Shown here: positions 23,699 through 53,563 of the stretch, in pieces
Position numbering within the stretch: position 1 is the stretch's first letter
Layout of the letters: each line of letters starts with the position of its first letter
From: Armatimonadota bacterium
GTDB lineage: Bacteria; Armatimonadota; HRBIN16
Direction: 5' to 3'
Assembly (NCBI GenBank): GCA_963677485.1
Contig: OY781964.1
Location: 3,808,001-3,872,000, forward strand
Length of the DNA stretch: 64,000 bases
Notes under the pieces: generated by a model
The model's input: only the letters and a program-made list of their open reading frames with translations
Told to the model about the DNA's origin: nothing
Databases searched by the model: none
Made by a program: the position numbers and the translations under genes

Positions 23699-23922
23699 CG
23701 ATTGAAGGGAACGCTTCAGTTACAATATGGGCTGCCGTGCCAGCACGGTCGGCTGCTCTCGTGTGTGTTGCCTCCATTATCTAATGTAAGAGCGGCGTGA
23801 TCCCATGTGCCGAACATCGTTCCTATGAACCTGTGTTCTGTGTGCCTTTATGGGTATACAACACGACGATCCAGTAATATAGAAAAAAGTATGATGTTAA
23901 TATAAAGTAAGTATAATACTAA

Positions 23923-24150
23923 TTGGATGGTGTGATGTGTTACAACGATCTGGGATGCAGCAAGTCTTGCAGGCTCTTTGGAGGTGCAGATCGACACCTG
24001 TCCGATCTGTTAGTGCTCAATCCTACTGATGATGAGATGCTGCTCGCAGCTCGCTGGTGCTTGACACAAGATGCATCAGAAGTCTTTCCGCAGATAGTGG
24101 AAAGTTTTCTCAGGAAAGTCGGGTGGGATCACATTGCTGAGCTTGTGTAG
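23923..24150 (+). pseudogene. remnant of DUF6036-like nucleotidyltransferase
   Basis: RHLSDLLVLNPTDDEMLLAARWCLTQDASEVF resembles the DUF6036 C-terminus; catalytic N-terminal half absent. Confidence 0.55.
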
Positions 24151-25192: not shown

Positions 25193-27604
25193 TCAGTCTC
25201 CCTGAGCCCCGAAGTTTCGATTAAGCACCACGTAGTCAAACAGGTTCACGCTGCCCGTGCCATCCATATCCGCCAGGGGATCGTTGGTGTTGAAGTGGAT
25301 ATCAAGCTCCACATAGTCAAACAGGTTCACTCGACCATCCCCATCGGCGTCACCCGAAAGTAGAGTGAGCGGCACGATCTGCTCACTTCCTGAGGGGGTG
25401 AGTTGGAGCCTTCGCCTGAGGAAAGGGCGTGCCGAAATCTCAATCGTGAGAGCTTGCTGGGGCAGCACACCGAGGGGCAAGGTGCCGTCGCCTAGCGTGG
25501 TTGCGGTATAGCGTTTTGAGTAGCCAACCCCGGTCACCGCAATATTGAATATCCGGCCAGCCATACTACCATCCCAGTAGTTGACGGTCGGGTTTAAGAT
25601 CACGTTGGTCTGTTGGTCGATGCCGCGGATCACCACATTATCGACGTATCCGTAAGCCGTGGCCGTGTTGGTGGTTCGGAATCTGATTTTGAAGTTCGTG
25701 TTATCGCTGGCACCGGCAGGAAGGCCGAACTGCTTGTAGCTCCATGCACTGTTGCCGGCCACATCCTCTAGCGTGTTCCATGAGTTTCCATCATACCACT
25801 CGGCGATCAAATGACTGCTTGAGGTTCCGTTGGCTGTCTGACGGGCGTATTCCACGATGATATCGTGCTTCGCTACCGTAGAGTATGACCTGGTGATCGA
25901 GTCTGTAGAGTTCAGATTCGCAGTATAGGTCTGCATGTACTTGCTTGTGGATTGCAGCGTCGCTCCGGTGTTTGTCCATCCACCGGTGGTGAGGTTGTTG
26001 CTCTCGAACCCGTCTGACCACAATACGGTGTCTAGCACGATGTTGTCTGCAACGACGCCAGAGATGTTTCCTGTATTATCCTTGAATTGCGCATAAACCA
26101 CTTTGATACCGCCCACGGATCCCAGATCATAGAGTTTGCTACCGGCATACGGCTCCCATGCACTCCAGTTGATCTCATCTGTGCTGAAGCGCATCTGCGA
26201 TATGGTACCGCCGGGTAACTGCGAGGAGGCGTTGAGTGCCAGGCTGACCGTGCCGTTGGTGGTTGTGGGGCTATCGCTATTGATGGTGATGCTGCCAGCT
26301 ATCGGGTCCGAGTTGATGCACATGATGTTTGCCCGGGCGCCCGACACCCCTCCATTGGATGGATCGAGGCGGATCCGGGTGATGTTCCCCGTCCAGTTTG
26401 CGTTGGTGGACATCGTCACCGCATAGTCATGCATCTGGCCATCGGCAATGGCGTTAAACACCACAGAATTCGCCTGTGTAAACTGTCCGCCTTGAGGGGC
26501 AAAGAATAACTGGCAGCTTCCATCGTTAGTGCCCACAAAAGCCATGCGTATATAGAGCTTCGGAACGCTCGAAGCGGTGAAGAACGTCGGTGGGCTGGTG
26601 ATATATGGGTCGGATGTGTCGAGTTTCATCTGCATCTGATGTTTTACCCAAGGGAAGCCGGTGTCTGTGCCATTCATTATGAAGTTCTGGCGGTCGTGGG
26701 CGAATACGAAATTCGGTCTAGTGTTAGGCGCATGTGAATACACATAGCTTCGGATGCTCGACAGACTGCCCAGGATCAGCGTCGCCTCGAAGTCATATGT
26801 GATATTGTGGTCTAGAATGTCGGTGCTCAGCGGAGCAATGTATCCGGTGTTGCCGCTGGTCGGACCGCCTGAATTCTTCGTTCCCGCAAATCCGCCTACA
26901 AACGAGTAAGAGCCCTTCTTGTAGGTGCCGACGCCCCAGCCGCTGGCATCCACTTGGGCTGCCCAGTTCTCGGTAGCCGTCCAGTAGTTCCAGGGTGGAC
27001 CCTGGTTCACCACTTCATTCATTGCTCCGTTAGTGAATGGCGCGTTTCCATTATAGGAGTATAGTTTGTATAGTGTCGCCACGGTGTAAACCGCCGGTTT
27101 TTCTTGTTCACGACCGCCATACGACGTGGTATCGGACCGGGCGTTGTTGATGCGGCAGTAGACATTCACTGATGATCCATCTATCGTGGTCCATTGCTCC
27201 AGCGTGCCCTCCTGGTCGACATTGTTGAGTGCCCACTGTTTGCCTATGCTTTTGGTATAGATGGTCTTACCATCGTTGGTATGTGCCAGGATCGTCGCGC
27301 TGTTACCGTAGCAGTCGCCCACTTGAATGGGGTTCCATGACCAGTTGGGCCAGCTCGAGCTGGGATTTCCATATGGCTGCGGACCTGAATAATAGGACTG
27401 CTGAACATAGCGCCCTTTGTCTGCGATGTTGATCTGGTTAGCCCCACCCGAAGTGCTGAGCCAGTAGATCGCTCCTCCGGATTTCAAGTCGATCCCGACC
27501 TTAATGATGCCGTTGTCTAAAAAACTGGATGACTGGGCCCATGCACCGGACGCTGAGATAATCATTATCAAGCTGATGGCTAGCGTAAGTGTCTTTCGAG
27601 ACAT
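25193..27604 (-). CDS. secreted multidomain protein with C-terminal X-module/dockerin-like tail
   Basis: signal peptide MSRKTLTLAISLIMIISASGAWA; CBM-like DGQMHDY..WTGNITRIRLDP; ends GDADGDGRVNLFDY..ADMDGTGSVNLFDY..NFGAQGD. Confidence 0.85.
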   Translation of the reverse strand: MSRKTLTLAISLIMIISASGAWAQSSSFLDNGIIKVGIDLKSGGAIYWLSTSGGANQINIADKGRYVQQSYYSGPQPYGNPSSSWPNWSWNPIQVGDCYGNSATILAHTNDGKTIYTKSIGKQWALNNVDQEGTLEQWTTIDGSSVNVYCRINNARSDTTSYGGREQEKPAVYTVATLYKLYSYNGNAPFTNGAMNEVVNQGPPWNYWTATENWAAQVDASGWGVGTYKKGSYSFVGGFAGTKNSGGPTSGNTGYIAPLSTDILDHNITYDFEATLILGSLSSIRSYVYSHAPNTRPNFVFAHDRQNFIMNGTDTGFPWVKHQMQMKLDTSDPYITSPPTFFTASSVPKLYIRMAFVGTNDGSCQLFFAPQGGQFTQANSVVFNAIADGQMHDYAVTMSTNANWTGNITRIRLDPSNGGVSGARANIMCINSDPIAGSITINSDSPTTTNGTVSLALNASSQLPGGTISQMRFSTDEINWSAWEPYAGSKLYDLGSVGGIKVVYAQFKDNTGNISGVVADNIVLDTVLWSDGFESNNLTTGGWTNTGATLQSTSKYMQTYTANLNSTDSITRSYSTVAKHDIIVEYARQTANGTSSSHLIAEWYDGNSWNTLEDVAGNSAWSYKQFGLPAGASDNTNFKIRFRTTNTATAYGYVDNVVIRGIDQQTNVILNPTVNYWDGSMAGRIFNIAVTGVGYSKRYTATTLGDGTLPLGVLPQQALTIEISARPFLRRRLQLTPSGSEQIVPLTLLSGDADGDGRVNLFDYVELDIHFNTNDPLADMDGTGSVNLFDYVVLNRNFGAQGD

Positions 27605-27700
27605 TGTTAGATTCTCCAAAATATGTACGTCATAAAGTGCGCGTTCGATCACCCAATGTCAGACGAACTCCAGCAGGAAATAGTTGCATATCGGCTGTGT

Positions 27701-29224
27701 TCAGTCGGCCTGTGCTCCAAAATTCTGATCCAGCACCACGTAGTCAAAAAGATTCACGCTGCCACTGCCATCCACATCCGCCAGGGGGTCGTTGCTATTG
27801 AAGTGCATGTCCAGCTCCACATAGTCAAACAGGTTGATTTGGCCGTTGCCATCGGCATCACCCGATAACAGGCTGATCGGCACGATCTGCTCAGTTCCTG
27901 CGGGCGTGATTTGGATCGTGCGCTTCAAGAACGGTTGGGCTGTGATGTCCACCGTCAGGGGCTGCTGGGGCAGCACTCCGAGCGGGATGGTGCCATCACT
28001 TTGTGCTGTGACCTCGTAGCTTTTTGATAGACCAGTTCCAGAAACTTGGATCTGGAACAGCCTGTCAGTCAGTGCGCCTTTCCACTGGATGATCGTGGGG
28101 TTGAGTATGACGCTGGTCTGCTGCGCAGGAACAAACTCGAAACGCCTGACGATGACCTCAACGGTCGCATTGTCGGATGGCGGAACGGTAGACCCGCCGA
28201 CAATCCATATGTTGATGTGCGTTTTCTCGGCGCCTGGTGTGGGGATGCCCGAACCTGTGTATGTCCATGACTGAAGCGGCGTGCTGCCGGTGTTGCTGGA
28301 AAAGGTGAGGGCGTTCTGGCTCCAAGTCAGGCTGTGGGTAGATGAGTTTGTCAGCGACGGCAGATTGAACCGGTGTCTGTGATTCGGCTGATCCCATAGT
28401 TGCAATACATACTGCGAGTTAGGATCACCAGCCGTGCCCCAACGGGAAAACTCGATGTCGATCTCTCGGTAAGGTGACGGGGCCGTGTCATCCCAGGTAA
28501 ACAGGCCAAACACGGCGTTGTAGTCGACGGCGGCAGGGTCACTATCGAGCACAAACCGGTAGGTTCCATACCCAAAGCTGTTTTTGCCGATCACTTCTGA
28601 GCAATACCAGCGGCCATTGTGGTTGCTGATCCTCAAGTGGAGCCGGCCAAGGGCGTCCGCCCAAACATCCTCAACCCGGTCGGAAAAGTAGTTGCCAGCA
28701 CTTGGAGGGCCAACTAAAAACTCACTTTTCTTGACCGTCCACTTCAGGCCTGAGAAGTCGATCTCACGAGGCGGTTCAGGGTTCGTGCGTGTCACCTGGA
28801 CGTTCGCCACGGCATGCTGTGATACCTCAGCGGGTATCTCCTGGTAACCCTGGGATATGGGCGGCATGTAGCCTGCGGGCAGCAGATAGGCCGCGATGCG
28901 GGTGGCAGCCTCGTCACCCTCTCCAGTGGTGATATCACACACCCATGTACCATCGGTGTTGATAGGCACGAGGCGCAGGCTCTCATCGAAGTTTGGTTTG
29001 GTCCACCAACCTTGGGTATATATAAACACCGCGACCCTGTAGTCATTGGGAGTGACATTTGTGACATGCCCAGTGAGGTTATCGTTGGAACCATATGGTG
29101 GCACATGGTCAAACACGATGGTGGGGGTTGCGCCTGTGGTCACTATCTGACCATCTGTGCTGCTATGACAGATAAGCGGTGCCGAAAGCATGGAGATGAG
29201 TGCTATGAGGCGTATCCAGTTCAT
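27701..29224 (-). CDS. secreted GH16-like glycoside hydrolase with dockerin-like tail
   Basis: signal peptide; GH16 motif EIDIE; duplicated Ca-loop C-terminus. Confidence 0.8.
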   Translation of the reverse strand: MNWIRLIALISMLSAPLICHSSTDGQIVTTGATPTIVFDHVPPYGSNDNLTGHVTNVTPNDYRVAVFIYTQGWWTKPNFDESLRLVPINTDGTWVCDITTGEGDEAATRIAAYLLPAGYMPPISQGYQEIPAEVSQHAVANVQVTRTNPEPPREIDFSGLKWTVKKSEFLVGPPSAGNYFSDRVEDVWADALGRLHLRISNHNGRWYCSEVIGKNSFGYGTYRFVLDSDPAAVDYNAVFGLFTWDDTAPSPYREIDIEFSRWGTAGDPNSQYVLQLWDQPNHRHRFNLPSLTNSSTHSLTWSQNALTFSSNTGSTPLQSWTYTGSGIPTPGAEKTHINIWIVGGSTVPPSDNATVEVIVRRFEFVPAQQTSVILNPTIIQWKGALTDRLFQIQVSGTGLSKSYEVTAQSDGTIPLGVLPQQPLTVDITAQPFLKRTIQITPAGTEQIVPISLLSGDADGNGQINLFDYVELDMHFNSNDPLADVDGSGSVNLFDYVVLDQNFGAQAD

Positions 29225-29270
29225 TGTGACCCTCCTGGATAAGAATGATTATCGCATGTAAGTTCATGTT

Positions 29271-29434
29271 GACTATGTCCGGGGCGGTCTGTCAGTAGGA
29301 TCATTATCACTACTGGATATAGACCGCGCCGGTCTTGTTCCCGACACTAATCTTGTATGGCTAACCGCCAGACCGGCGCGGTCATCGGCCATATGCAACC
29401 GCTAGCATCATGCCAGACCGCCCCAGACTTAGCC
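29271..29434 (+). repeat. nested-palindrome element family A, full copy
   Basis: same four-arm architecture as 23537-23698. Confidence 0.85.
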
Positions 29435-29566
29435 AACGCTAGTTGTTCGTAATGACAGCGCATCGAGCCATATCATTACTATCAGGATACCTTTTTAAAT
29501 ATGGGCGTAGTCATCGGAGTTGGGGGATGTACATTAGCGGAAATTGCGGGCACTCAGGCAGCTCTA

Positions 29567-29592
29567 AGGGGCGGTGTAGATCCACCGCCCTT
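29567..29592 (-). terminator. hairpin after ThuA-like gene
   Basis: AAGGGGCGGTG-TAGATC-CACCGCCCTT. Confidence 0.5.
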
Positions 29593-29614
29593 GTTCGAAT
29601 TACAGAATAGCAGG

Positions 29615-30262
29615 TTAGCGGGCTGCCCAGAGCATACCGCGCTGCATGATGGTCTTTACTTCGGGTACCTGGAAGTCAGATGCGACATGCCCCAGCGAAC
29701 TGTAGAACACGCGGCCTTCGCCGAACTTGCGCTTCCACACGGCGGGCATCACGGTGCCGGCAACCCATGGGTAGGTATCACCGCTGATGGTGGTGGTGGC
29801 CAGCACTTCGTTGCCGGGATCAGTGTGCATGTAGTATTGCTCTGAGTGCATTGCGAACTCACCCAGGCCAGCTACGATGGGGTCTTCCGGCTTGGATATC
29901 TGCACGGTGTAGCCAATGATGCCGCCGGGATGCTCTACCCAGTTGCCGCCGGTCATGAATTGATACATGGTGTTGTTACGGAAGCTGTCGCACATTCCGC
30001 CGTGCCAGCCAGCCAGGCCAACACCGCTGCGGACGGCTTTCAGTAGCCCGGCTTCTTGTTCGCCGCTGATCTGGCCCATGGTCCAAGCGGGTACGATCAG
30101 GCTGAGGCTGCTCATGAACGCCTCGTCTGTATAGATATCCATGCTGCCATCGACTACTTTAACGTCGAAGCCGTTCTCTTTCAGGAAGGGGATGAAGATG
30201 TCGGTTGTCTGCACGGGTTCATGGCCATCCCAGCCGCCGCGTACTACGAGTGCTTTTTTCAT
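29615..30262 (-). CDS. ThuA domain protein
   Basis: [33 protein letters not shown]. Confidence 0.85.
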
Positions 30263-30283
30263 GTGGTTACTATTCCTTATTTG

Positions 30284-31384
30284 TTAGTCGATTTGTCCGG
30301 TGATAAGGCCCATCTTCATGGGATCTGGCTGCTTCACCGTATTGGTGATGGCGATGGATTTCCCTTGGTCACTGGCTTCGTGTATGCTCTGCATGATGTC
30401 GAGCACGTGAAGCGCGAGCGCTCCGCTGGCGCGGTGAGGCCGCTCTAGCTGGATGCCTGCGCTCATGTCGGCCACACCCAGCATACGCCAGTTGTCGCTG
30501 TAGATATGGCTGTAGGGGATCACCTGCCAGCCGCTGCCGGGTCGGAACAGTTTGGGCTCGCCGCCGAATCCATTGGGGTCTGGCACGGAGATGGTTCCTT
30601 CGGTGCCGTAGATTTCGATCCAAGGAAGGTTGGCAGCCCACACATCGAAGCTGGTGGTGATAGTGCCAACGGCGCCGTTCTCAAATTCCAGAAGGCCGTT
30701 TACGTGGGTAGGAACATCCACATCCACCACCTTGCCGTATTTGCCGGCGCTGGTGATGGTTCTTGTGGGAAAGCTCATTCGGTTGGCTCCAGCAACTTTC
30801 GCCACTGGACCCATCAGGTTCACAAGCGCGGTCAGGTAATAGGGACCCATGTCGAACATCGGTCCGCCGCCCTGCTCATAATAGAATTCGGGATCCGGAT
30901 GCCAGCTCTCATGGCCATGGCAGGTCATGAAGGCGTTGGCACCGATGGGACGGCCAATCCAACCGTCATCAATCAGCTTGCGGCAGGTCTGAATACCCGC
31001 ACCCAGGAAGGTGTCGGGAGCGCAGCCCACCCGCAGGCCCTTCTCCGTCGCCAGTGCCAGCGTAGCTTCACCATCCTGGCGATTCAAGGCCAATGGCTTT
31101 TCGCAGTAGACATGCTTGCCTGCCAACAATGCGGCCCTATTCACGGCAAAATGCTGTTTCGGTACGGTGAGATTCAGCACAATCTCGATTTCTGGGTTGG
31201 CCAGTAGCTCCTCGGTGCTGCAGACCAATGGTACGTTGAACTCCGCCGCACGCGCCTTCGCCTTCTCCGTGATCAGATCGGCGCAGGCTACGATGTCGAC
31301 CATCGGTAACTTCGATCCGTTCGTGAAGTAGATGCCGCTGATGTTGCCGCATCCCACTATTCCAACTTTCATGGGACGTATCAT
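30284..31384 (-). CDS. Gfo/Idh/MocA oxidoreductase
   Basis: GIVGCGNIS, KHVYCEKP, APDTFLG, DMGPYY; RBS GAGGT before ATG 31384. Confidence 0.92.
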   Translation of the reverse strand: MIRPMKVGIVGCGNISGIYFTNGSKLPMVDIVACADLITEKAKARAAEFNVPLVCSTEELLANPEIEIVLNLTVPKQHFAVNRAALLAGKHVYCEKPLALNRQDGEATLALATEKGLRVGCAPDTFLGAGIQTCRKLIDDGWIGRPIGANAFMTCHGHESWHPDPEFYYEQGGGPMFDMGPYYLTALVNLMGPVAKVAGANRMSFPTRTITSAGKYGKVVDVDVPTHVNGLLEFENGAVGTITTSFDVWAANLPWIEIYGTEGTISVPDPNGFGGEPKLFRPGSGWQVIPYSHIYSDNWRMLGVADMSAGIQLERPHRASGALALHVLDIMQSIHEASDQGKSIAITNTVKQPDPMKMGLITGQID

Positions 31385-31417
31385 GTATTTACCTCTATGG
31401 TGAATGGAACTGGGTTG

Positions 31418-31446
31418 AGTATGACTCAATGTTTACCGTGATTCAA
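31418..31446 (-). promoter_or_regulatory. promoter overlapped by palindrome TTGAGT-N3-ACTCAA
   Basis: minus strand TTGAAT-17 nt-CATACT; core also present at 32616-32631. Confidence 0.55.
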
Positions 31447-31472
31447 GGTCTTATGGCAGTGCCACCTGACTG

Positions 31473-32579
31473 CTAGTCTATCTGACCTGTGATGAGGCCC
31501 ATCTTCATCGGTTCTGGCTGCGCCACAGTATTGGTGATGGCGATAGACTTGCCCTGGTCACTGGCCTCATGGATGCTCTGCATGACATCAAGAACATGCA
31601 GGGCAAGAGCTCCGCTGGCGCGGTGCGGCCGTCCCAACTGGATTCCTGCGCTCATGTCGGCCACGCCCAGCATACGCCAGTGGTCGCTGTAGATATGACT
31701 GTGCGGGATGACTTTCCAGTCACTTCCGGGGCGGTATAACTTCACATCACCGCCAAAGAAGTTGGGGTCGGGTAATGACAGGGTTCCATCGGTGCCGTAG
31801 ATTTCGATAAACGGAAGGTTGGCGGCCCAGATATCAAAGCTCTGCATGATGGTGGCAACTGCACCATTTTCGAACTCAAGCAAGCCGTTGACATGGGTCG
31901 GAATCTCCACGTCAATCTTCTGACCGTATTTGGGCTGGCTGGTGATGGTGCGCGTGGGGAAGCTGATCCGGTTGGCTCCCGCTACCCGTGCGATGGGGCC
32001 CATCAGGTGTACCATGGCTGTCAGGTAATACGGGCCCATGTCATACATAGGACCGCCACCAACCTTGTAGAAGAACTCTGGGTCTGGATGCCAGTTTTCA
32101 GGTCCACGGTGCGGGGCAGGCATGAAGGCGTTAGCACCGATGGGACGGCCTATCCAGCCATCGTCAATCACTTTTCGACAAGTTTGTAAGCCTGCTCCCA
32201 GGAATGTGTCAGGAGCACAACCGATCCGCAGCCCCTTTTCTTCAGCCAGCGCGAGGATCTTAATGCCGTCCTCGCGGGTCAATGCCAGAGGCTTTTCGGT
32301 GTAGACATGTTTCCCCGCCATTAAGGCCGCTGTAGTGACTGCAAAGTGGGCCTGCGGCACCGTAAGATTGATGATGATCTCGATTTCGGGATTCGCGATG
32401 AGTTCTTCGGTGCTGCATGCGATGGGGATGTTAAACTCCGCCGCTCTGGCCTTGGCCTTCTCGAGATTGAGATCGGCGCATGCTATGACATCAACCATAG
32501 GTAGTTTGGGACCGTTCGTGAAGTAGATGCCGCTGATGTTGCCGCATCCCACTATTCCGACTTTCATTGCACGTATCAC
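31473..32579 (-). CDS. Gfo/Idh/MocA oxidoreductase, tandem paralog of 30284-31384
   Basis: very similar protein along its whole length; GTG start after GAGGT. Confidence 0.92.
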   Translation of the reverse strand: MIRAMKVGIVGCGNISGIYFTNGPKLPMVDVIACADLNLEKAKARAAEFNIPIACSTEELIANPEIEIIINLTVPQAHFAVTTAALMAGKHVYTEKPLALTREDGIKILALAEEKGLRIGCAPDTFLGAGLQTCRKVIDDGWIGRPIGANAFMPAPHRGPENWHPDPEFFYKVGGGPMYDMGPYYLTAMVHLMGPIARVAGANRISFPTRTITSQPKYGQKIDVEIPTHVNGLLEFENGAVATIMQSFDIWAANLPFIEIYGTDGTLSLPDPNFFGGDVKLYRPGSDWKVIPHSHIYSDHWRMLGVADMSAGIQLGRPHRASGALALHVLDVMQSIHEASDQGKSIAITNTVAQPEPMKMGLITGQID

Positions 32580-32621
32580 GATTATGACCTCGCTGGTGTT
32601 TATAGGAATGGTACCGGGTTG

Positions 32622-32651
32622 AGTATGACTCGAATGGGTGCCGATATGCAA
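32622..32651 (-). promoter_or_regulatory. promoter of upstream paralog
   Basis: minus strand TTGCAT-18 nt-CATACT, with the -10 inside the conserved GAGTCATACTCAACCC. Confidence 0.5.
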
Positions 32652-32819
32652 GGCAATATTGACTAATCACAGGATAGTCTGCGAAATATGTATTACCGAA
32701 TGATATTTCACCGGTAAGCAGGGAATCACCTTTGTTCTGGCGAAATATTAGGCTGGCAGTAGTATACTGCTCACCAATTTCAGAACAACATGATGTGTTC
32801 TTGAGTAAGGATGTTTCCA

Positions 32820-33605
32820 ATGATCGCTTCACAGATCGTTGCGCAGCTCTATACTGTTCGTGACTATATCAAAACCCCACCGGAAATCGCGAAGTCCCTC
32901 AAGAAAATACGGGAGATCGGTTATGATGCCGTGCAGGTCAGCGGAATGGGGCCCATCCCTGAAGCTGAGCTGAAATCCATGCTGGACGGCGAAGGGCTGG
33001 TGTGTTGTGCAACGCACGAGGGTGCAGAACGCATCTTGAACGACACGCAGCAGATCGTTGACCGGCTTAACGCGCTCAACTGCCAGCATACCGCTTACCC
33101 GCATCCGGCCAATGTGGACCTCAGCTGCCTGCAGGGTGTGGATGCGCTGGCCTCTCGCCTTGATGCTGCCGGTAAACTGCTGTATGCCCACGGCATGACC
33201 TTGAGCTACCATAACCACCAGATTGAGTTCCGCAAAGTCGGCGGTCAGACGATTTTGTCGCGGCTGATGGAAAAGACAGATCCCCGGTATTTGAAACTCG
33301 AACTGGACACTTACTGGGCTCAGTATGGGGGCGGTGACCCCGTGACATGGTGCCAACAAAGTAATGGCCGGTTGCCGTTACTGCACCTAAAGGATTACGA
33401 AATCGGTGAGGACAACCAGCCGCGATTCGCAAGCATCGGCCGAGGCAACCTGGACTGGCATCGCATCATCGTCGCTGCTGAGGCATCCGGCTGCCAGTGG
33501 TTTATCGTGGAGCAAGATACCTGTCCTGGCGACCCATTTGATGCGCTAAAGCAGAGTTATGAATATCTATCGGCGACATTCTGTTCAAAAGAGGTGGAGA
33601 TGTGA
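32820..33605 (+). CDS. sugar phosphate isomerase/epimerase (IolE-like TIM barrel)
   Basis: QLYTVRD, YHNHQIEF, ELDTYW, LHLKD, IVEQD. Confidence 0.88.
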   Translation: MIASQIVAQLYTVRDYIKTPPEIAKSLKKIREIGYDAVQVSGMGPIPEAELKSMLDGEGLVCCATHEGAERILNDTQQIVDRLNALNCQHTAYPHPANVDLSCLQGVDALASRLDAAGKLLYAHGMTLSYHNHQIEFRKVGGQTILSRLMEKTDPRYLKLELDTYWAQYGGGDPVTWCQQSNGRLPLLHLKDYEIGEDNQPRFASIGRGNLDWHRIIVAAEASGCQWFIVEQDTCPGDPFDALKQSYEYLSATFCSKEVEM

Positions 33606-34789
33606 GTATGAAGGAAGTACGTTTAGGTATCATTGGCTTCGGAACGATGGGGCAGGGTCATGCCTGTAATGTGCGCGATGGCAAGGTGGCACGTTGCCGT
33701 ATTACCGCCATATGCGACCTGGTTCCCGAAAAGATGGAGACCTGGGGTGCAAAGCCATACACCCTGCGTACCGCCCGTCAACCCGGCGAAGAAGAGGAAC
33801 TGATTGAAGGGCCTCCCATCAATGCGAAGCACTACACCGACTATAGAGAGCTGATCGCCAGCGGCGAGGTAGATGCTGTGCTGATCGCGACTCCGCATTA
33901 TGACCATACCACGGTAGGCATCGCTGCATTGAATGCAGGTCTTCATGTGATGGTCGAAAAGCCGATCTCAGTCGACAAGTATGATGCTCAGAAGCTGGCG
34001 GCAGCGCACAAGAACCCGAACCAGGTGTTCGCAGCGATGTTCAACCAACGAACCAATCCGATGTACCAAAGGCTTCGCTCGATGATGCAGAACGACGAAT
34101 TGGGCGAATTTGTGCGTGTGAACTGGATCGTATCCAACTGGTTCCGCACAGAGGCCTATTACTCATCTGGGGGCTGGCGGGCCACCTGGGTCGGAGAAGG
34201 CGGCGGCGTGCTGTTGAATCAGTGCCCGCATAACTTGGACTTGCTGCAGTGGATATGCGGAATGCCCAGCGCGTTGACTGCTAATTGCGGGTTCGGCGTC
34301 AAGCATAACATCGAAGTGGAAGATGAGGTGACGGTGAGCCTGGAGTATCCCAACGGGGCCACCGGAGTGTTTGTCACCAGTACCGGCGAATGGCCGGGAG
34401 CTAACCGACTAGAGGTAGTGGGTGACAAAGGCAAGGTGGTAATCGAGGACGGCAAGTTTGATGTCTGGATGAATGAAGTCGGCGCTGCTGAGTTCTCTCG
34501 CACCACCGACCAAGGGTTTGGTGCTCCTCCATGTCACCATGAGACGCTGGATATCCCCTCTAGCGGTGGAGAGCATGTGGAGACACTGACCATCTTCGTG
34601 GATGCGATTCTAGATGGTAAACCGCTGCTCGCTCACGCAGAAGAGGGTATCAACAGCGTGGAACTGGCCAATGCGATGATCTGGAGCGGTTTGACGAAGC
34701 AGCGCGTTGCACTACCAATCGATGCAGACGGATATCATGAGGTGCTTGCTCAACTGAAGGATGGCCGTTTGAAGAGCAAGGAGGCTTAG
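33602..34789 (+). CDS. Gfo/Idh/MocA oxidoreductase
   Basis: GIIGFGTMG, ATPHYDH, VEKP, GGGVLLNQCPHNLD. Confidence 0.9.
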   Translation: MSMKEVRLGIIGFGTMGQGHACNVRDGKVARCRITAICDLVPEKMETWGAKPYTLRTARQPGEEEELIEGPPINAKHYTDYRELIASGEVDAVLIATPHYDHTTVGIAALNAGLHVMVEKPISVDKYDAQKLAAAHKNPNQVFAAMFNQRTNPMYQRLRSMMQNDELGEFVRVNWIVSNWFRTEAYYSSGGWRATWVGEGGGVLLNQCPHNLDLLQWICGMPSALTANCGFGVKHNIEVEDEVTVSLEYPNGATGVFVTSTGEWPGANRLEVVGDKGKVVIEDGKFDVWMNEVGAAEFSRTTDQGFGAPPCHHETLDIPSSGGEHVETLTIFVDAILDGKPLLAHAEEGINSVELANAMIWSGLTKQRVALPIDADGYHEVLAQLKDGRLKSKEA

Positions 34790-35659
34790 ATGTATTTCAC
34801 CGGTTTTGCCGATGAAGCCTCGTTCGAGCTAGCTGGTCAGATTGCCGTTACAAAGCAGCTAGGCTGGGGAAATATCGAGGCGCGCGGGATCACCCGTATC
34901 AACATCCATGACCTGTGCGACGAACACTTCGAGGCTGTGGCGCAGGCCCTTGATGAAGCGGGCATCAAGGTGAACTGCTTTGGCAGTGCGATAGCCAACT
35001 GGGCTCACAGCATTGAGGAGCCGTTTGAGGTCACCGAGCAGCAGATTGAGCGGACCATTCCGCGTATGCAGCGGTTGAACAGCAAGCTGATACGAATCAT
35101 GAGCTATGCCGTGTTACCGGACCGCGATGTGGATGATCAGATGGAGCAGGAGCGGTTCGCGCGGCTGCGCATTATCACCAACCGCTTCCTTGAGGCTGAT
35201 ATTCAGCCTGTTCACGAGAACTGCATGAACTATGGTGGTATGGGCTGGGTATACACGCTGCGCCTGATACAGAATGTGCCCGGCTTGAAGCTGGTTTACG
35301 ACACCGGTAATCCGGTGTTTACGGTGGATCGAACAAAGCCTCAGCCTTACCCGCAGCAGAGCAGTTGGGATTTCTACCGTCATGTCAAAGATCATATCGC
35401 CTATATCCACATTAAGGATGGCACGTTTGATCAAACCACAGGGCGGCCGGTGTTCAGCTTCCCAGGCGAAGGGTTCGGTGATGTTCGACGCATTCTGGCC
35501 GATCTACTCGCCTCTGGCTACAACGGGGGCATATCTATCGAACCGCACATGGTCAGCGTGGCGCACGAACCGTCTGACGCAGATAATGAGGCGATGTATA
35601 ACAACTACCTGGAGTATGGCCAGCGCATCATGAAGATGGTGGATGAGTTGCAGAGATAG
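34790..35659 (+). CDS. sugar phosphate isomerase/epimerase family protein
   Basis: TGFADEA, HENC, DTGN, HIKD, SIEPH. Confidence 0.87.
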   Translation: MYFTGFADEASFELAGQIAVTKQLGWGNIEARGITRINIHDLCDEHFEAVAQALDEAGIKVNCFGSAIANWAHSIEEPFEVTEQQIERTIPRMQRLNSKLIRIMSYAVLPDRDVDDQMEQERFARLRIITNRFLEADIQPVHENCMNYGGMGWVYTLRLIQNVPGLKLVYDTGNPVFTVDRTKPQPYPQQSSWDFYRHVKDHIAYIHIKDGTFDQTTGRPVFSFPGEGFGDVRRILADLLASGYNGGISIEPHMVSVAHEPSDADNEAMYNNYLEYGQRIMKMVDELQR

Positions 35660-35691
35660 GGCTAGTGCGTGTTTGACTATCAGATCGCTAA

Positions 35692-35722
35692 GAGGCCGAG
35701 ATGGGATATCCCACTTGGCCTC
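35692..35722 (+). terminator. hairpin after epimerase gene
   Basis: GAGGCCGAG.TGGGA..TCCCACTTGGCCTC. Confidence 0.5.
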
Positions 35723-35802
35723 AATTCATGCGCTTACGGCGTATACACAAACAAGCACCAGCCCGTGGCGGAACGGCTGCCCAAGCTGCAACTGATACTG
35801 TC

Positions 35803-35883
35803 GTAGGGGCGTCCCTTGTGAGCGCCCTAATCGGTGTCCATTCGATAGTTCATTTTTAGGGCGCCCACAAGGGACGCCCCTAC
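35803..35883. repeat. GTAG-type REP doublet (REPIN-like)
   Basis: GTAGGGGCGTCCCTTGTGAGCGCCCT ... AGGGCGCCCACAAGGGACGCCCCTAC. Confidence 0.85.
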
Positions 35884-35909
35884 GACCAGTCACCTACAAG
35901 AGGTAAAAC

Positions 35910-37043
35910 ATGCAATTGAACGAACTACGGGTTCAGGATGCGGCAACGCGCACCTACCTGGGCAGCCCGAGCCTGGTGAGACTGCCAGATGGCGCACTTC
36001 TGGCGACACACGATTACTTCGGTAAAGGGTGCCCACGGAACCACGAAAATGAGGAGCATCTCACCAGTGTCTACCGGTCAGATGACGATGGACTCAGCTG
36101 GCGGAACCTTACCCATATCGCCAATGCCTATTGGAGCTCGTTGTTTGTCAACCGCAGGGCTGTCTATTTGCTGGGGTGTTCGCAGCAGTACGGCTCGATT
36201 GTGATCCGGCGCAGCGACGATGGCGGTTACACCTGGAGCCACCCGACAGATAGCCATACGGGGTTGTTGTTCAAAGGCGGCTATTTCCATGAGGCCCCTA
36301 ACTACCATTGCGCCCCTGTGCCCATACTGAACCACAAAGGGCGCCTCTACCGTGCCTTTGAAGATTGCGATCCATGCGTGTGGGGCAGCGGCTTCAGGTC
36401 CTGCGTCGTATCCATCGCCGACACCGCAGACTTGCTGGAGGCTGACAACTGGAGCATGAGCAACAAACTGGCCTTCGACCCAGCCTGGCTTCCTAAAGAG
36501 TGGGGCGAGATACCCATACCCGGTTGGCTGGAAGGGAACTGCGTGGCGACCCCGACCGGCGAGATATGGAACATCTTGCGCTTCAATTCGGCACCACACG
36601 ACGATATAGTTGCTGTCATCAACGTGACCGATGCCGGAAAGACAGTTGCATTCAACCCTGAGACAGGATTTATCAGCTTCCCCGGAGGAATGACCAAGTT
36701 TACGATCAGGCGCGATCCCCTCACAGGCAGCTACCTGACACTGACGAATCCGCGGACCGACACGGCCGTTTTTGGTCAGAATCAACGCAACCGGCTGGTG
36801 TTGTGCGCATCAGATGACCTGCTGCAGTGGCGCGAGGTGAAGCTGTTGATGGAGGACGATCTGGGGTATGACGAGAGGCAGTCACGGCGGTCGACAGGCT
36901 TTCAGTATGTGGACTGGCAGTTTGACGGCGAAGATATCATCTACCTGGTTCGGACCGCATATGACGGTGCTCATAACTACCATGATTCTAACAGGATCAC
37001 CTTTCACAGATTGGCGGGCTTTCGGAGGCTTATCGTGCAGTAA
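35910..37043 (+). CDS. sialidase-family (BNR/Asp-box) beta-propeller protein
   Basis: Asp boxes SDDDGLSW, SDDGGYTW, SDDLLQW; FQYVDW; no signal peptide. Confidence 0.8.
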   Translation: MQLNELRVQDAATRTYLGSPSLVRLPDGALLATHDYFGKGCPRNHENEEHLTSVYRSDDDGLSWRNLTHIANAYWSSLFVNRRAVYLLGCSQQYGSIVIRRSDDGGYTWSHPTDSHTGLLFKGGYFHEAPNYHCAPVPILNHKGRLYRAFEDCDPCVWGSGFRSCVVSIADTADLLEADNWSMSNKLAFDPAWLPKEWGEIPIPGWLEGNCVATPTGEIWNILRFNSAPHDDIVAVINVTDAGKTVAFNPETGFISFPGGMTKFTIRRDPLTGSYLTLTNPRTDTAVFGQNQRNRLVLCASDDLLQWREVKLLMEDDLGYDERQSRRSTGFQYVDWQFDGEDIIYLVRTAYDGAHNYHDSNRITFHRLAGFRRLIVQ

Positions 37044-37109
37044 TCGGATGATCTCGTCTTCGTGTGTAATGCACCGGATGTGGACTGTATAGCTGGTAGT
37101 TTTGCGGGG

Positions 37110-37139
37110 TTGACATATTGTTCGATATTCGTTCATAAT
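37110..37139 (+). promoter_or_regulatory. sigma70-type promoter
   Basis: TTGACA-18 nt-CATAAT upstream of IPT/TIG gene. Confidence 0.55.
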
Positions 37140-37223
37140 AGGTGCATTAAGGTGATGAAGTGTATGATGGTGTACTCCTAGCTGCCATATAATGCATCGC
37201 TATACACAATACAGGAGATCGAC

Positions 37224-39149
37224 ATGAACAGGATATTGACATCGCTGTCATCAGTATGGCGCATGGTCGTGGCATTATCTGTAATGGTGATGCCTACATA
37301 CGCAGCCAGTCCTGCGATCACCTCCTTCTCGCCAACGAGTGGAGCCGCTGGCGTAGAAGTGATCCTCACCGGCACGAACTTCACGGGAGCGACTTCGGTG
37401 CAATTCCATGGAGTGTCAGCGGGCTTCACCTTGCGTAATTCGACCTCAATTGCCACTGTCGTCCCTGAGAAAGCCACCACAGGGGAGATTAAAGTGATAT
37501 CGCCTAGTGGAACGGCCACTAGCGCGACTAACTTCACTGTCTTGCCGACGATAACTAGCTTTTCCCCATCTTCAGGCATTGTGGGAGATTCCGTCACCGT
37601 ATCAGGAACGGCATTTCTCGGTGCTACGGCAGTGAAATTCAACGGGGTAACGGCCACTTTCAATGTGTCAGACTACAAAACTATACTGGCCACTGTGCCT
37701 GTTGGTGCCGAGACAGGCAAGATATCGGTGACAACACCGAGCGGATCGGCAACGAGCGTAACGAACTTCAAAGTAAAGCCGGTCATCAGTTCGTTTGCTC
37801 CCGAATCTGGCAAAGTAGGGGCTTCCGTCTCGATCACGGGCGCTAGTTTCACCGGCGCGACTGCAGTGAAATTCAATGGTATCACAGCGAGCTTTACCGT
37901 CAACAGTGCTACATCCATCACCAGCACTGTACCACTGGGAGCCACGACCGGGAAGATCACCGTGACCACCGGTAGCGGCACCGCCACGAGCAATGCAGAC
38001 TTTCCCGTGCTGCCGACTATTACCTCTTTTACGCCCTCCAGCGGCCAAATCGGATCAGAGGTAACCATCACAGGTATGAACTTTACGGGAGCGACCGAGG
38101 TGACCTTCCGAGCGTACCATGCGAGCTATACGGTCATCAATGACACAACGATCATTGCTTATGTGCCTGTTCAATCCACTACCGGTAAAGTCGCCGTGAC
38201 TACGCCAGCAGGCCATACCTTAAGCGACATCGAATTTACGGTGGTGGAAGGCACAAAAATCACCTCGTTTACGCCCACTAGTGGTATAGCTGGCCAGTCT
38301 GTGGTCATCACTGGTCTCCAATTCAATGTCGTGACGGGTGTCAATTTCAACATTTACCCAGCTCAGTCCTACACGATTAATAGTGATACTCAGATAACCG
38401 CAGTCGTGCCTGCCAACGCGACGACAGGAAAGATAAACCTGGATATCCCTCATGCTTCTAAATCAAGCCCAGCCACATTCACTGTCTTGCCGACGATCAC
38501 CTCATTTACACCGGCAAGTGGAAAACCGGGTGACACTGTGGTCATACAGGGTACTGCTTTCGTTAATGTACTAGGGGTGAAGTTCAACGATATCGCTGCT
38601 GCCAGCTGGTCGCGTAATAGCAACACTTCTGTCAATGCCGTGGTACCCGTAGGTGCCGGAACGGGTAAGATACAGATCACGACCCAGGATGGAGTGGCTA
38701 TCAGTGATACCGGTTTTGTGGGGTATGATCCCGCGCAGCTTGAACTATCCGTTGATCTAGGAGCCGAATTCATAGGCGCTCCGAACCAGGTCCAACTGAA
38801 CTATATTCTAAGCGGGCCTCAGGAATATAACGGTGTGCTGCCGATGGATGGCGGAGGGATAGCTCTTCTTACGGATCTTCAGCCAGGTAATTACAAACTG
38901 ACGATATTTGGGAACCACTGGCTCAAACGCGTGGTATCTGGCCTCAACATAGATGGGTTCCTCCATGAGAACATCGCCTTAGCGAATGGCGATGCTGACG
39001 GAGATAGTCAAGTGAACCTGTTCGACTTCGTGGTGCTGGATATCAACTTTAACAAGGCTCACGCCATGGCTGATTTGGATGGCAACGGAGCCGTAAACCT
39101 GTTCGACTATGTGATCATCGACCAGAATTTCGGTGCTCAAGGAGACTAG
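37224..39149 (+). CDS. secreted protein with six IPT/TIG repeats and dockerin-like tail
   Basis: signal peptide; six ITSF.P.SG..G..V.I.G repeats; GDADGDSQVNLFDF..NFGAQGD. Confidence 0.88.
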   Translation: MNRILTSLSSVWRMVVALSVMVMPTYAASPAITSFSPTSGAAGVEVILTGTNFTGATSVQFHGVSAGFTLRNSTSIATVVPEKATTGEIKVISPSGTATSATNFTVLPTITSFSPSSGIVGDSVTVSGTAFLGATAVKFNGVTATFNVSDYKTILATVPVGAETGKISVTTPSGSATSVTNFKVKPVISSFAPESGKVGASVSITGASFTGATAVKFNGITASFTVNSATSITSTVPLGATTGKITVTTGSGTATSNADFPVLPTITSFTPSSGQIGSEVTITGMNFTGATEVTFRAYHASYTVINDTTIIAYVPVQSTTGKVAVTTPAGHTLSDIEFTVVEGTKITSFTPTSGIAGQSVVITGLQFNVVTGVNFNIYPAQSYTINSDTQITAVVPANATTGKINLDIPHASKSSPATFTVLPTITSFTPASGKPGDTVVIQGTAFVNVLGVKFNDIAAASWSRNSNTSVNAVVPVGAGTGKIQITTQDGVAISDTGFVGYDPAQLELSVDLGAEFIGAPNQVQLNYILSGPQEYNGVLPMDGGGIALLTDLQPGNYKLTIFGNHWLKRVVSGLNIDGFLHENIALANGDADGDSQVNLFDFVVLDINFNKAHAMADLDGNGAVNLFDYVIIDQNFGAQGD

Positions 39150-39256
39150 TAGAAATTCTACAAATCCATGGGTGTCATGCATTCATGATCTAGGTGGCAA
39201 GCTGCAGTAGCACTCTTGCCACGATGGCATTATTTGCGTAGTAAAGGAGTGTAATT

Positions 39257-40318
39257 ATGCGTCATATACATTCTGCGGCCTTATCTGGCTTGATAACGCT
39301 GCTGTGCTTGCTTTCTTTTTCGATGGTTACCAGTGCCGTCACCATATATCCTGACCTGACCGGTGTATGGGAAACCACCTGTAACGGCCATTGGGGATAT
39401 ACCAATATCACGTCGCAAAGCGGGGCGTCATTTTCTGGAACGACGCTTGATAACCCCCTAATCAATGGCTTTATCAGCGGCCGAACGGTCTCCTATACCC
39501 GTGACATTGGCACCATACACCAGGATTACGTGGGAACACTGACCATAGATGCAGTTGGTAATGCTGCGATGTCAGGCACCTTCACACAGAATGATACCGG
39601 CCAATGGAACTGGACAGCGGCCAAACGCGACCCAATCCGTGAGGTTACTGCTCCCACGGTATCCTCTTTCACTCCGGGAAATGGAGCGGCTGGTCATACC
39701 ATCACGATCAATGGAACCAACCTGCAATGGGTATTTCGTGTTTCGTTCAATGGCACAGTTTCTTCTTCGGTTTCAATCAACAGCGATACTTCCATCACCG
39801 CAATAGTGCCTACCGGGGCTACGACGGGCAAGATCGCAGTCACATCTGCCGGTGGGACTGGCACTAGTGCAGATGACTTCGCTGTGTATGAGGCCGCTCA
39901 ATTGGAAGTGATGCTCGATCTTGGGGCGGAATACATTGGCGATCCAGGTCAGGTTCAGTTGAACTACACCCTGGTTGGTCCCCAGACTTACAATGGTGTT
40001 CTGCCGATATTTGGCGGAATTGGGTTGCTGGTCGATTTAGAGCCCGGCACTTACACGCTGACACTGTCTGGCAGCCACTGGCTTACGCGGGTCGTTAAGG
40101 ACATCGTTGTTGAAGGCGTCAAGCTGGTGAATGTCTCACTGGTGAATGGCGACTCCGATGGCGACAACCAGGTAAACCTGTTTGACTTCGTGGTGCTGGA
40201 CATCAACTTCGGCAAGGCACACGCCATGGCTGACCTGGATGGCAGCGGCACCGTCAACCTGTTCGACTACGTGATCATAGACACCAACTTCGGGGCGCAA
40301 GCAGACATCTCACCATAG
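39257..40318 (+). CDS. secreted protein: small beta domain, one IPT/TIG repeat, dockerin-like tail
   Basis: signal peptide; DLTGVW domain; VSSFTPGNG repeat; GDSDGDNQVNLFDF..NFGAQAD. Confidence 0.87.
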   Translation: MRHIHSAALSGLITLLCLLSFSMVTSAVTIYPDLTGVWETTCNGHWGYTNITSQSGASFSGTTLDNPLINGFISGRTVSYTRDIGTIHQDYVGTLTIDAVGNAAMSGTFTQNDTGQWNWTAAKRDPIREVTAPTVSSFTPGNGAAGHTITINGTNLQWVFRVSFNGTVSSSVSINSDTSITAIVPTGATTGKIAVTSAGGTGTSADDFAVYEAAQLEVMLDLGAEYIGDPGQVQLNYTLVGPQTYNGVLPIFGGIGLLVDLEPGTYTLTLSGSHWLTRVVKDIVVEGVKLVNVSLVNGDSDGDNQVNLFDFVVLDINFGKAHAMADLDGSGTVNLFDYVIIDTNFGAQADISP

Positions 40319-40986: not shown

Positions 40987-41922
40987 ATGATATCAGTACG
41001 AATACCTGCAACCTCCGCCAACCTAGGGCCAGCTTTTGACTGCATGGGTGTGGCACTGGACTTGTGGAACACATTTGAACTTCGGCGGCAAGGCCCGGCA
41101 GGTCAGGTGGCTGTGCGCACCCTGGGCGAGGGCGAAGATCGGCTTCCTGGTGACGAAACGAACCTGATCGTGACCATCATCAAGCACGAACTAGGGGCGA
41201 TGTATAGTCAGCTTCCTCACGGTTTGCACATCGCGTGCTATAACAGCGTGCCCTGTGCCAGCGGTCTGGGCAGTAGCTCGACGGCGGTACTGGCCGGGAT
41301 CATCTTCGCTGAGGCGTTGCGGTTAACCCCGCACAATGAGGATTTCGACCCGGACTGCATCGACATGCAGTTGGTGCTTCAACGCGCCCTTGAGGTAGAG
41401 GGGCACGGCGATAATGTGGGCCCAGCGCTGAAAGGTGGCGTCGCTCTGATCATGCCCGACAAAGAGGGCATTGTGGCGCAGCAGATGGAATTTACACCTT
41501 TCCGAGTGACGGTGTGTGTGCCCGATTTTAACTACCTCACGGAAACGGCACGAGCCCGCCTGCCCAAAGAGATTCCTTACCGTGATGCGGTGTTTAACAT
41601 CGGTCATGCGATGCTGACAGCCCAGGCTCTGCGATTTGGCGACATGGAGCTGTTGCAAAAGGCTATGCGTGACAAACTGCATGAACCATACCGAATCCCC
41701 GACATCCCCGGTGCAAATGAAGCCCGTCGGGCTGCTCTGGATGCCAATGCGGTGGCCGTCGCGTTGTCTGGTGCAGGACCTGGCTTGATCGCATTCGCTG
41801 CCGAAGGCCATGCGGCTATTGGCAAGGCGATGAGCGAGGCGTTTGGCAAGGCCGGCTTGGTGGCTCGCTGGTGGGCTATCGACGCGGTTGAGTCCGGGCT
41901 CAGCGTCCGCAGACTACCGTAA
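40987..41922 (+). CDS. thrB: homoserine kinase
   Basis: RIPATSANLGPAFDCMG, P.ASGLGSSS, EGHGDNV, LSGAGP. Confidence 0.95.
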   Translation: MISVRIPATSANLGPAFDCMGVALDLWNTFELRRQGPAGQVAVRTLGEGEDRLPGDETNLIVTIIKHELGAMYSQLPHGLHIACYNSVPCASGLGSSSTAVLAGIIFAEALRLTPHNEDFDPDCIDMQLVLQRALEVEGHGDNVGPALKGGVALIMPDKEGIVAQQMEFTPFRVTVCVPDFNYLTETARARLPKEIPYRDAVFNIGHAMLTAQALRFGDMELLQKAMRDKLHEPYRIPDIPGANEARRAALDANAVAVALSGAGPGLIAFAAEGHAAIGKAMSEAFGKAGLVARWWAIDAVESGLSVRRLP

Positions 41923-41929
41923 GCCGTCG

Positions 41930-53008: not shown

Positions 53009-53563
53009 GTGATGACGAAATATGAATGGATCATACGCCTTTTTATCACCGCAGGCGTATTAGCACTGTTTATTTCGTTGTGTGTGCCCAATCTATTGGC
53101 AGCCTGGTTCACTTATAATGCCCTCACTGGCGACGGTTCTATTTCTGGAAAACTGACATGTGGTGATCTTACAACCTACGAATTGTGTGAACCAAGCCAT
53201 GAAAAAGAAAGCATTTGGGGGCAAAGGCACCAGTCTAGTGGATCGAACTCGATCGACCGATTCTTCACTATCGATGAACATGGGAGAAAGCTGTTAGTCA
53301 ATGATCTTTCTGTGGAACGCATCGCCGGTTATCGCAGTCTTCCCCGCATGTTGATTGGCGCCAGCCGAAGCGGGTATTTTATATTTGACAATGCCGCGAG
53401 AACAGCAACCGTATATGCCCACCACGATCATTGGATGAAGGACCTGAAAAAACTGAGTATCGCTCCCAATACACTGTTGCTTCCAGGGCCTATTCGCGAG
53501 AGCTACGAGGGCCGTGGATGGTTGGGAGCCCATATCAATCCCGATAAGGAGTGGTACCAATGA
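53009..53563 (+). CDS. membrane-anchored hypothetical protein
   Basis: GGAGG RBS; N-terminal TM; paralog of next gene. Confidence 0.7.
   Translation: MMTKYEWIIRLFITAGVLALFISLCVPNLLAAWFTYNALTGDGSISGKLTCGDLTTYELCEPSHEKESIWGQRHQSSGSNSIDRFFTIDEHGRKLLVNDLSVERIAGYRSLPRMLIGASRSGYFIFDNAARTATVYAHHDHWMKDLKKLSIAPNTLLLPGPIRESYEGRGWLGAHINPDKEWYQ

Follow-up and report, generated by a model that had tools for sequence, protein, structure and literature searches.

A tail homologous to the X-module and type II dockerin dyad on predicted secreted proteins of varied cargo in Armatimonadota

Four genes within a 64,000-nucleotide stretch of DNA from an Armatimonadota bacterium (contig OY781964.1, positions 3,808,001 to 3,872,000; hereafter the window) encode proteins with a signal-peptide-like N-terminus, unrelated cargo, and the same kind of C-terminal tail. 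On the evidence of profile alignments, this tail is a homolog of the dyad of X module and type II dockerin (XDoc) known from cellulosomes. The genes are designated P0001 (25193..27652, minus strand), P0002 (27701..29224, minus strand), P0003 (37224..39149, plus strand), and P0004 (39257..40318, plus strand). They are interpreted here as part of a large Armatimonadota family whose XDoc tail docks to one shared receptor, a reading that is given a probability of about one half. What appears to be new is that, in an Armatimonadota lineage, a true XDoc dyad terminates dozens of proteins that are not scaffoldins and are mostly adhesin-like, with no cohesin in the parts read. Dockerins outside cellulosomes were known already, as was the naming of some relatives by NCBI as "dockerin type I repeat-containing protein".

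Homology of the tail to X-module and dockerin dyads

The tail of each window protein begins with a beta-looking module of ~85 amino acids (aa), which is followed by two copies of D-x-D-G-x-G-x-[VI]-N-L-F-D-[YF]-V placed 27 residues apart, and then by NFGAQ[GA]D. When a profile of the four tails was compared with the PDB, the best chains were constructs from cellulosomal scaffoldins that contain an X module and a type II dockerin (2b59_B, 1.2e-7). A broader profile of 23 tails, led by P0004, gave the same result with greater strength, as its six best chains were all XDoc: 4wi0_B (2e-15), 4u3s_B (1.6e-14), 2b59_B (6.3e-13), 3kcp_A (2.9e-12), 5k39_B (2e-11), and 5g5d_B (2.8e-11). The alignments span profile positions 34–141, taking in both the X module and the dockerin, and dockerin-only chains are weaker, from 1e-9 onward. 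XDoc chains likewise rank at the top for a profile of the P0055 family, a set of related proteins discussed below. The initial annotation, made from the window alone, had likened the tail to a type II dockerin preceded by an X module; the matches to solved XDoc chains run through both parts and uphold that likeness.

As had also been proposed, the X modules fall into two subtypes, one per tandem gene pair. Subtype A occurs in P0001 and P0002 and subtype B in P0003 and P0004, with 60% identity within each pair and no detectable similarity between the subtypes (BLASTP E = 3.1; hhalign probability 1%). A common origin of the two was considered and finds no support in these comparisons. Since the X modules of the two pairs are unalike, what is demonstrably common to all four proteins is the dockerin together with a module of the same length and position. 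A profile of subtype A alone nevertheless retrieves XDoc chains through the X region, with alignments over positions 23–138 and E-values from 5.6e-6 (5k39_B) and 5.2e-5 (2b59_B) to 6.7e-3. Among remoter relatives, the region at the X position is scored as a CarboxypepD_reg-like beta sandwich (PF13620).

Conservation of the dockerin repeats

Known dockerins are built from two tandem segments of ~22 residues, each a 12-residue EF-hand-like calcium loop (DxDxDGxhNxxD) plus a helix, and such segments are present in all four window tails as well as in 88 of 88 family members. In the window proteins, both loops fit DxDxDGx[VI]NxxD in every case. A six-frame search of the window for the calcium loop with NLFD returned exactly eight sites, every one of them within the four tails, so the earlier statement that NLFD occurs in all eight loops stands. 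At the DNA level, a degenerate pattern encoding V-N-L-F-D-[YF]-V had seven matches, whereas 100 shuffles gave an expectation of 0.00; the eighth loop has I in place of V.

The window dockerins are identical to each other at 34–48 of 56 residues in pairwise comparison, with a nucleotide identity of 0.65–0.81. Among those 34–48 identical residues, 13–21 are encoded by different codons. Gene conversion was considered as the cause of the invariant motif and was rejected, because identical residues so often use different codons; the same observation argues that strong purifying selection, and not recent conversion, keeps the dockerin near-invariant. Across the 88 family open reading frames (ORFs), the second repeat has L, D, and Y in 87 each and F in 84. 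This repeat lay outside the search pattern by which the ORFs were found. The first repeat is also fixed, although its count is biased by its inclusion in that pattern. The two repeats are near-identical to each other as well, with the same residue at 16 of 22 consensus positions. Such a near-invariant dockerin across 88 paralogs and orthologs would fit a single shared partner.

Family size and genomic arrangement

The tail family is large. A search with the tail of P0004 returned 60 proteins of 194–618 aa, and all 12 organism-bearing source names were "Armatimonadota bacterium", a thirteenth name being without an organism. Among longer proteins, a profile search gave 154 matches at E <= 1e-5; 24 of the 120 listed were named, all as Armatimonadota. 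The window's own contig (5,220,040 bases) holds at least 23 tail clusters, consisting of 22 among the matches listed plus P0001. An exhaustive search of representative sequences found 4759 clusters at E <= 1e-3, of which 383 reached 1e-10 and 32 reached 1e-30; the representatives carry no taxon labels. In 133 of the 150 listed representatives the match started at or before profile position 53 and hence included the X module.

Related loci were collected by a genome scan that relied on exact motif patterns, and the resulting 43 loci come from two assemblies only, OW818647.1 (5.3 Mb) and the metagenome-assembled genome CAZFLA01. The fetched loci comprise 800 kb of DNA in all and cover about a tenth of OW818647.1. 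Counting hits to a hidden Markov model of the tail, a check suggested with the initial annotation, gave 92 ORFs in these loci and the window. Of these, 88 are distinct: 66 from OW818647.1, 18 from CAZFLA01, and the four from the window. The module lies 12 or fewer residues from the C-terminus in 86 of the 88 (the exceptions are L028:9881-11119 and L012:7841-10507, named by locus and position). By a crude rule, the N-terminus is signal-peptide-like in 70 of the 80 complete tail ORFs.

Tail genes often stand in tandem arrays of up to about ten ORFs, as in loci L011, L005, L016, L022, and L024, and also L014. Two loci, L001 and L020, represent the syntenic region of the window, and the ortholog of P0001 in L001 is 90–96% identical. 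The array of TIG-XDoc genes that includes P0003 and P0004 has two genes in the window (37224-40318) and in L013:1379-3718, and five in L020:1562-10984, all between the same flanking genes: a BNR-like gene upstream and, downstream, a small ORF, a GHMP kinase, an Rce1-like protease, a 724-aa glycoside hydrolase (GH)-like protein, and GH43. The presence of two versus five genes between the same flanks points to rapid tandem gain or loss of TIG-XDoc genes.

Neighboring genes were also considered as candidates for the receptor or for dedicated machinery. Apart from fiber-like proteins, no recurrent non-tail partner or machinery gene stands beside the tail genes at the 43 loci. The initial annotation had placed the tail genes on the flanks of a sugar-catabolism cluster; the neighbors of the relatives' loci are varied, and the tie to that cluster looks incidental. 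It had also described a lineage-specific modular system. Modularity is borne out by many unrelated cargoes, and all organism-bearing names are Armatimonadota. F. sacchari, a cultivated member of the phylum, is reported to be without cohesin and dockerin domains (PMC11535203). Given this cultivated member, the system would be confined to part of the phylum.

Cargo and position of the module

Sixty of the 88 tail ORFs belong to one similarity cluster of RCC1 and/or TIG repeats. The cargo of 24 of the 88 was scanned for known families: eight carry RCC1, three carry only TIG, two combine papain with a lectin domain, and two have a beta-helix (one of them a protein of 2944 aa). Laminin B, subtilase, alkaline phosphatase, and FGE-sulfatase domains occur once each, four proteins are without a known family, and one is a mini protein of 218 aa without a cargo domain. 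Among larger representatives, the cargo also includes M6 peptidase, GDSL lipase, WD40, RHS, cadherin-like, and PKD domains.

While the tail is nearly always terminal, it is not strictly so. In P0012, P0019, P0029, and L028:9881-11119, the XDoc either comes immediately behind the signal peptide or is flanked by TIG domains on one side and a C-terminal FGE-sulfatase (SUMF1/EgtB/PvdO-like) domain on the other. The first three of these are encoded on the same contig as the window, and in them the module precedes the FGE-sulfatase domain.

Mini proteins of 218 aa, consisting of a signal peptide, ~55 aa, the X module, and the dockerin, alternate with nine paralogous secreted proteins of 638–790 aa without a Pfam family. 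This arrangement is seen at L030:4856-20277, L032:4964-15320, and L036:9695-12323. The N-terminus of one of the longer proteins, P0194, weakly matches the NCBIfam model "mosaic adhesive trimer family chimeric fiber protein" (Bdellovibrio), at 24.3 bits against a cutoff of 60. The mini XDoc proteins may serve as an adaptor for these fiber-like adhesins.

Proposed docking to a shared receptor and alternative explanations

In the proposed mechanism, an N-terminal signal peptide would direct each protein across the cytoplasmic membrane. The dockerin would then fold around two calcium ions bound by its two 12-residue DxDxDGxVNLFD loops, as the motif suggests. The two near-identical helices starting at LFDYV, braced by the preceding beta module, would form a docking surface for one shared receptor, and this receptor would be a cohesin or a functional analog of one, placed on the cell envelope or on a scaffold. 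The result would be a gathering of varied cargo at one place, including RCC1 propellers, TIG arrays, a GH16-like enzyme, proteases, a phosphatase, and lectin-like domains. Three lines of evidence make docking to a shared receptor the best-supported reading: the homology to cohesin-binding XDocs, the modular reuse of the tail, and the fixed helix pair.

Several observations weigh against it. First, a hunt through the window and roughly 10% of one relative's genome turned up no cohesin. Within the window, the Pfam cohesin model (PF00963) matched none of 42 ORFs at E <= 1e-5 and none of 12 ORFs without a family at E <= 1, in agreement with the initial annotation, which had seen no cohesin there. 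It also matched nothing among the 113 of 465 non-tail ORFs of the 43 loci that were picked by a crude signal-peptide or transmembrane rule, nor in the tail-bearing proteins themselves (10 at E <= 1, 24 at E <= 1e-3, 48 at E <= 1e-5, and 20 at E <= 0.05). Among the precomputed Pfam domains of 120 listed relatives, cohesin is likewise absent. The search for a cohesin partner that had been recommended at the outset thus came back empty within the window and the 43 loci of relatives.

The character of the proteins is a further difficulty. Classical XDoc carriers are cohesin-bearing scaffoldins, whereas the carriers here have enzymes, TIG, or RCC1 as cargo. In addition, all four window dockerins miss the gathering cutoff of Pfam Dockerin_1 (PF00404; 22.9 bits), with 19.6 bits for P0001, 19.8 for P0002, 15.6 for P0003, and no match at E <= 0.1 for P0004. 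Some paralogs exceed this cutoff, namely P0055 (24.2 bits), P0058 (25.6), P0035 (25.3), and L040:8375-10189 (26.3). The two X subtypes, moreover, are not demonstrably homologous to each other. Finally, the cultivated F. sacchari is not only without both domains but is also reported to be diderm by cryo-EM (PMC11535203), and in a diderm cell a signal peptide alone would leave the proteins in the periplasm, so that a further export step would be needed.

The P0055 family was examined as a possible source of the missing partner. Its members (P0055, P0053, P0056, P0061, and P0193, with P0055 on the window's contig) are represented by a protein of 348 aa in which an N-domain of ~190 aa without a known family precedes the X module and dockerin. 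Among proteins of 191–609 aa, the N-domain is found in five sequences only, query included, which are 69–100% identical. Its strand pattern recalls a cohesin by eye, a likeness to which the searches lend no support: there was no Pfam match at E <= 1, only noise in the PDB at E <= 10, and no paralog in the 800 kb of fetched DNA. The family could act as receptor or adaptor.

A bolder form of the docking hypothesis holds that a diderm lineage runs cellulosome-like docking for non-cellulolytic ends. Each genome would have dozens of proteins with an XDoc tag, among them proteases and adhesin-like or glycan-active proteins, held on a receptor not recognizable as a cohesin, and the P0055 family would be one candidate component. 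This is regarded as unlikely; if true, a non-cohesin receptor would give dockerins a receptor class not known before and would amount to a novel means of decorating the outer membrane. If an ordinary cohesin is encoded elsewhere in the genome, the system would instead be an unremarkable extension of a known one. The sampled tenth of one Armatimonadota genome contains 66 different tail proteins, which carry mostly adhesin-like repeats rather than plant-cell-wall enzymes. The identity of the partner would show whether dockerins can be a general surface-display tag in a diderm phylum, and, together with the tail, the partner could give protein engineering a new orthogonal docking pair.

The failure to find a cohesin in any scan also invites an explanation without a dedicated protein receptor. 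Here, the tail would be a calcium-stabilized module that binds a glycan of the envelope or matrix (lipopolysaccharide, exopolysaccharide, or cell-wall polymer) or a substrate polysaccharide, or that simply stabilizes exoproteins. The PDB relatives speak otherwise, as the best of them are all cohesin-binding XDocs, and in known dockerins a near-invariant helix pair is the signature of a protein interface. To our knowledge, no glycan-binding dockerin has been described. Some encouragement comes from the PF13620 score of the X module in distant relatives, this being a fold that is often found beside carbohydrate-active or surface domains. On balance, this explanation is held to be doubtful.

A second alternative takes the position of the tail as its point of departure. 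With 86 of 88 modules at the extreme C-terminus, and with a beta sandwich and conserved terminal motif on dozens of signal-peptide proteins, the tail could act in secretion or sorting, as a domain recognized by an outer-membrane machine for translocation or attachment, similar in function to the C-terminal domain (CTD) of the type IX secretion system (T9SS). The diderm cell reported for the cultivated phylum member would suit such a machine (PMC11535203). So might a gene for an Rce1-like CPBP protease (41843-42547, plus strand) that lies downstream of the second tail gene pair, with synteny kept in L013 and L020. Enzymes of the Rce1-like CPBP family process some C-terminal sorting signals. The link between this protease and the tail is one of gene position alone.

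The sorting-signal explanation, which the initial annotation had raised alongside anchoring, is weakened by the FGE-sulfatase fusions, where the module is N-terminal or internal: these speak against a strictly C-terminal sorting tag, and the obligatory extreme C-terminal place that characterizes sorting signals such as the T9SS CTD and PEP-CTERM is not observed. The tail is also without a C-terminal transmembrane or basic stretch, and no curated NCBIfam sorting-domain model matches the tail of any window protein at E <= 0.1. With the homology to XDoc docking modules being clear, and no conserved machinery gene recurring beside the tail genes, a sorting function is considered improbable. Least probable of all is self-assembly, in which tails would bind one another or further domains found in the family (dockerin to dockerin, X to dockerin, or dockerin to TIG or RCC1) to form a surface mesh or oligomers with no separate receptor: the [repeat]n-X-Doc scaffoldin layout that many TIG or RCC1 carriers mimic, the arrays of up to about ten tail ORFs, and the 218-aa proteins that are little more than signal peptide, X module, and dockerin could all be accommodated, but there is no known precedent for TIG or RCC1 as a dockerin receptor.

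The four genes and other features of the window

The four tail genes are arranged head to tail in two pairs, whose members are separated by 48 and 107 bases. All are present as ORFs in the form first described. Judged by eye, the N-termini of P0001–P0004 resemble Sec signal peptides, with a positive n-region, a hydrophobic core, and an AxA-like site, which agrees with the signal peptides described earlier. The tail coordinates given in the initial annotation likewise proved correct.

P0001 is an ORF of 819 aa that comprises a signal peptide, ~660 aa of cargo without a known family, an X module, and a dockerin. The true start is probably M17, at 27604. The cargo has no match in Pfam, NCBIfam, or the PDB. 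Its subtype A X module of 87 aa (25355..25615, minus strand) lies in the region through which the subtype A profile of X module and dockerin aligns to the XDoc chains 5k39_B and 2b59_B, and its dockerin-like module (25196..25354, minus strand) consists of two DxDGxGxVNLFDYV repeats of calcium loop and helix.

P0002 (507 aa) has a signal peptide, an N-terminal beta region, a weakly GH16-like domain, an X module of subtype A (87 aa; 27863..28123, minus strand), and a dockerin-like module with the calcium-loop and NLFD repeats (27704..27862, minus strand). The assignment of the cargo to GH16 in the initial annotation is weakly supported. In its favor, the protein contains EIDIEF, which we take to be the GH16 catalytic motif (ExDxxE), and NCBIfam beta-glucanase models match at E = 1e-3 to 3e-3. 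These matches are far under their cutoffs (ExoK, 18.6 bits with a cutoff of 350; BglS, 17.2 bits with a cutoff of 300), and when the PDB was searched with a profile of six orthologs, no chain at E <= 0.1 belonged to GH16.

P0003 (641 aa) carries a signal peptide, six IPT/TIG domains, an X module of subtype B (84 aa; 38736..38987, plus strand), and a dockerin-like module with the same repeats (38988..39146, plus strand). The profile alignment of its X module and dockerin is to 4wi0_B, 4u3s_B, and 2b59_B. P0004 (353 aa) has a signal peptide, a beta region of ~100 aa without a known family, one TIG domain, an X module of subtype B (83 aa; 39899..40147, plus strand), and the dockerin-like repeats (40148..40306, plus strand), followed by a final ISP. 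The IPT/TIG cargo reported at first was recovered by a Pfam scan, which found six TIG stretches in P0003 (E = 5.8e-44) and one in P0004.

The genes between the two pairs (29615..37043) are all without the tail. They encode a ThuA protein, three GFO/IDH/MocA oxidoreductases, two xylose-isomerase-like TIM barrels, and a BNR-like protein. Beyond the tail genes, two secreted paralogs are encoded on the minus strand at 42617-44791 (724 aa) and 54534-57422 (962 aa); they belong to no firmly assigned family and show a weak Glyco_hydro_42 match (E = 0.015). Their orthologs in L013 and L020 adjoin GH43 and GH35/NPCBM genes. Two tandem pairs of small paralogs with an N-terminal hydrophobic segment and no family occur at 61013-61609 plus 61725-62324 and at 53009-53563 plus 53551-54093, and the latter pair has homologs in L033. 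A single tandem repeat is present in the window, an AT-rich unit of 22 bases in 2.2 copies at 23875-23923, intergenic between 23475 and 24134. Scans for Rfam families, tRNA genes, tandem repeats, and promoters or terminators yielded nothing relevant to the tail system.

Comparison with known systems

Cellulosomes of monoderm Firmicutes provide the best-understood examples of pairing between cohesin and dockerin. In these complexes, the XDoc ends cohesin-bearing scaffoldins and binds the type II cohesins of SLH-anchored proteins. The solved cellulosomal examples (2b59_B, 3kcp_A, and 5g5d_B, each described as "Cellulosomal scaffolding protein A", and 4u3s_B and 4wi0_B, described as "Cellulosomal scaffoldin") share the order of the Armatimonadota tail, in which a beta module of ~85–100 aa precedes a duplicated calcium-loop and helix dockerin ending in FGA. 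They also share hydrophobic residues after the loop asparagine, which are LF in the window tails. In contrast to the scaffoldins, the Armatimonadota dyad is carried by enzymes, TIG arrays, and RCC1 propellers, the regions scanned yielded no cohesin, and the phylum includes diderm cells. The Armatimonadota dockerin is also shorter than those of the solved XDocs, being without insertions of ~4 and ~6 residues. Near-identical repeats, for their part, are a feature of type I dockerins with a dual binding mode.

For subtype A, chain 5k39_B ("Dockerin module from a protein of unknown function"; also 5m0y, "Ig domain protein group 2 domain protein") is the best PDB match (5.6e-6) and aligns over both X module and dockerin. 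Its second loop also reads INLFD, although overall similarity is low. The PDB entry of this chain includes a partner, whereas none was detected for the Armatimonadota tails in the regions scanned.

With respect to tags on secreted proteins, the T9SS CTD is a C-terminal, beta-sandwich-containing tag on many signal-peptide proteins of a diderm lineage. No sequence relation to it was found, and the Armatimonadota tail differs in that it is sometimes N-terminal or internal and has docking modules as its closest relatives.

Searches of the literature on dockerin or cohesin in Armatimonadota, and on secreted proteins combining RCC1 and dockerin, found no account of this system, and the review PMC12484212 offered no passage bearing on it. 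Non-cellulosomal dockerins on non-cellulolytic cargo have been proposed to act in adhesion, with function unproven (PMC5244752; PMC10066038; bioRxiv 10.1101/2023.11.21.568195), and the role of many dockerins outside cellulosomes is described as unknown (PMC5244752, citing Peer et al. 2009). Anaerobic methanotrophic (ANME) archaea have large dockerin counts per genome and many cohesin domains as well (PMC5244752); this plenty of cohesins sets them apart from the Armatimonadota regions scanned, where none was detected. In Omnitrophota, dockerin repeats are reported inside single giant proteins (PMC10066038; bioRxiv 10.1101/2023.11.21.568195), whereas in Armatimonadota the XDoc dyad occurs singly, at the end of dozens of separate proteins with predicted secretion.

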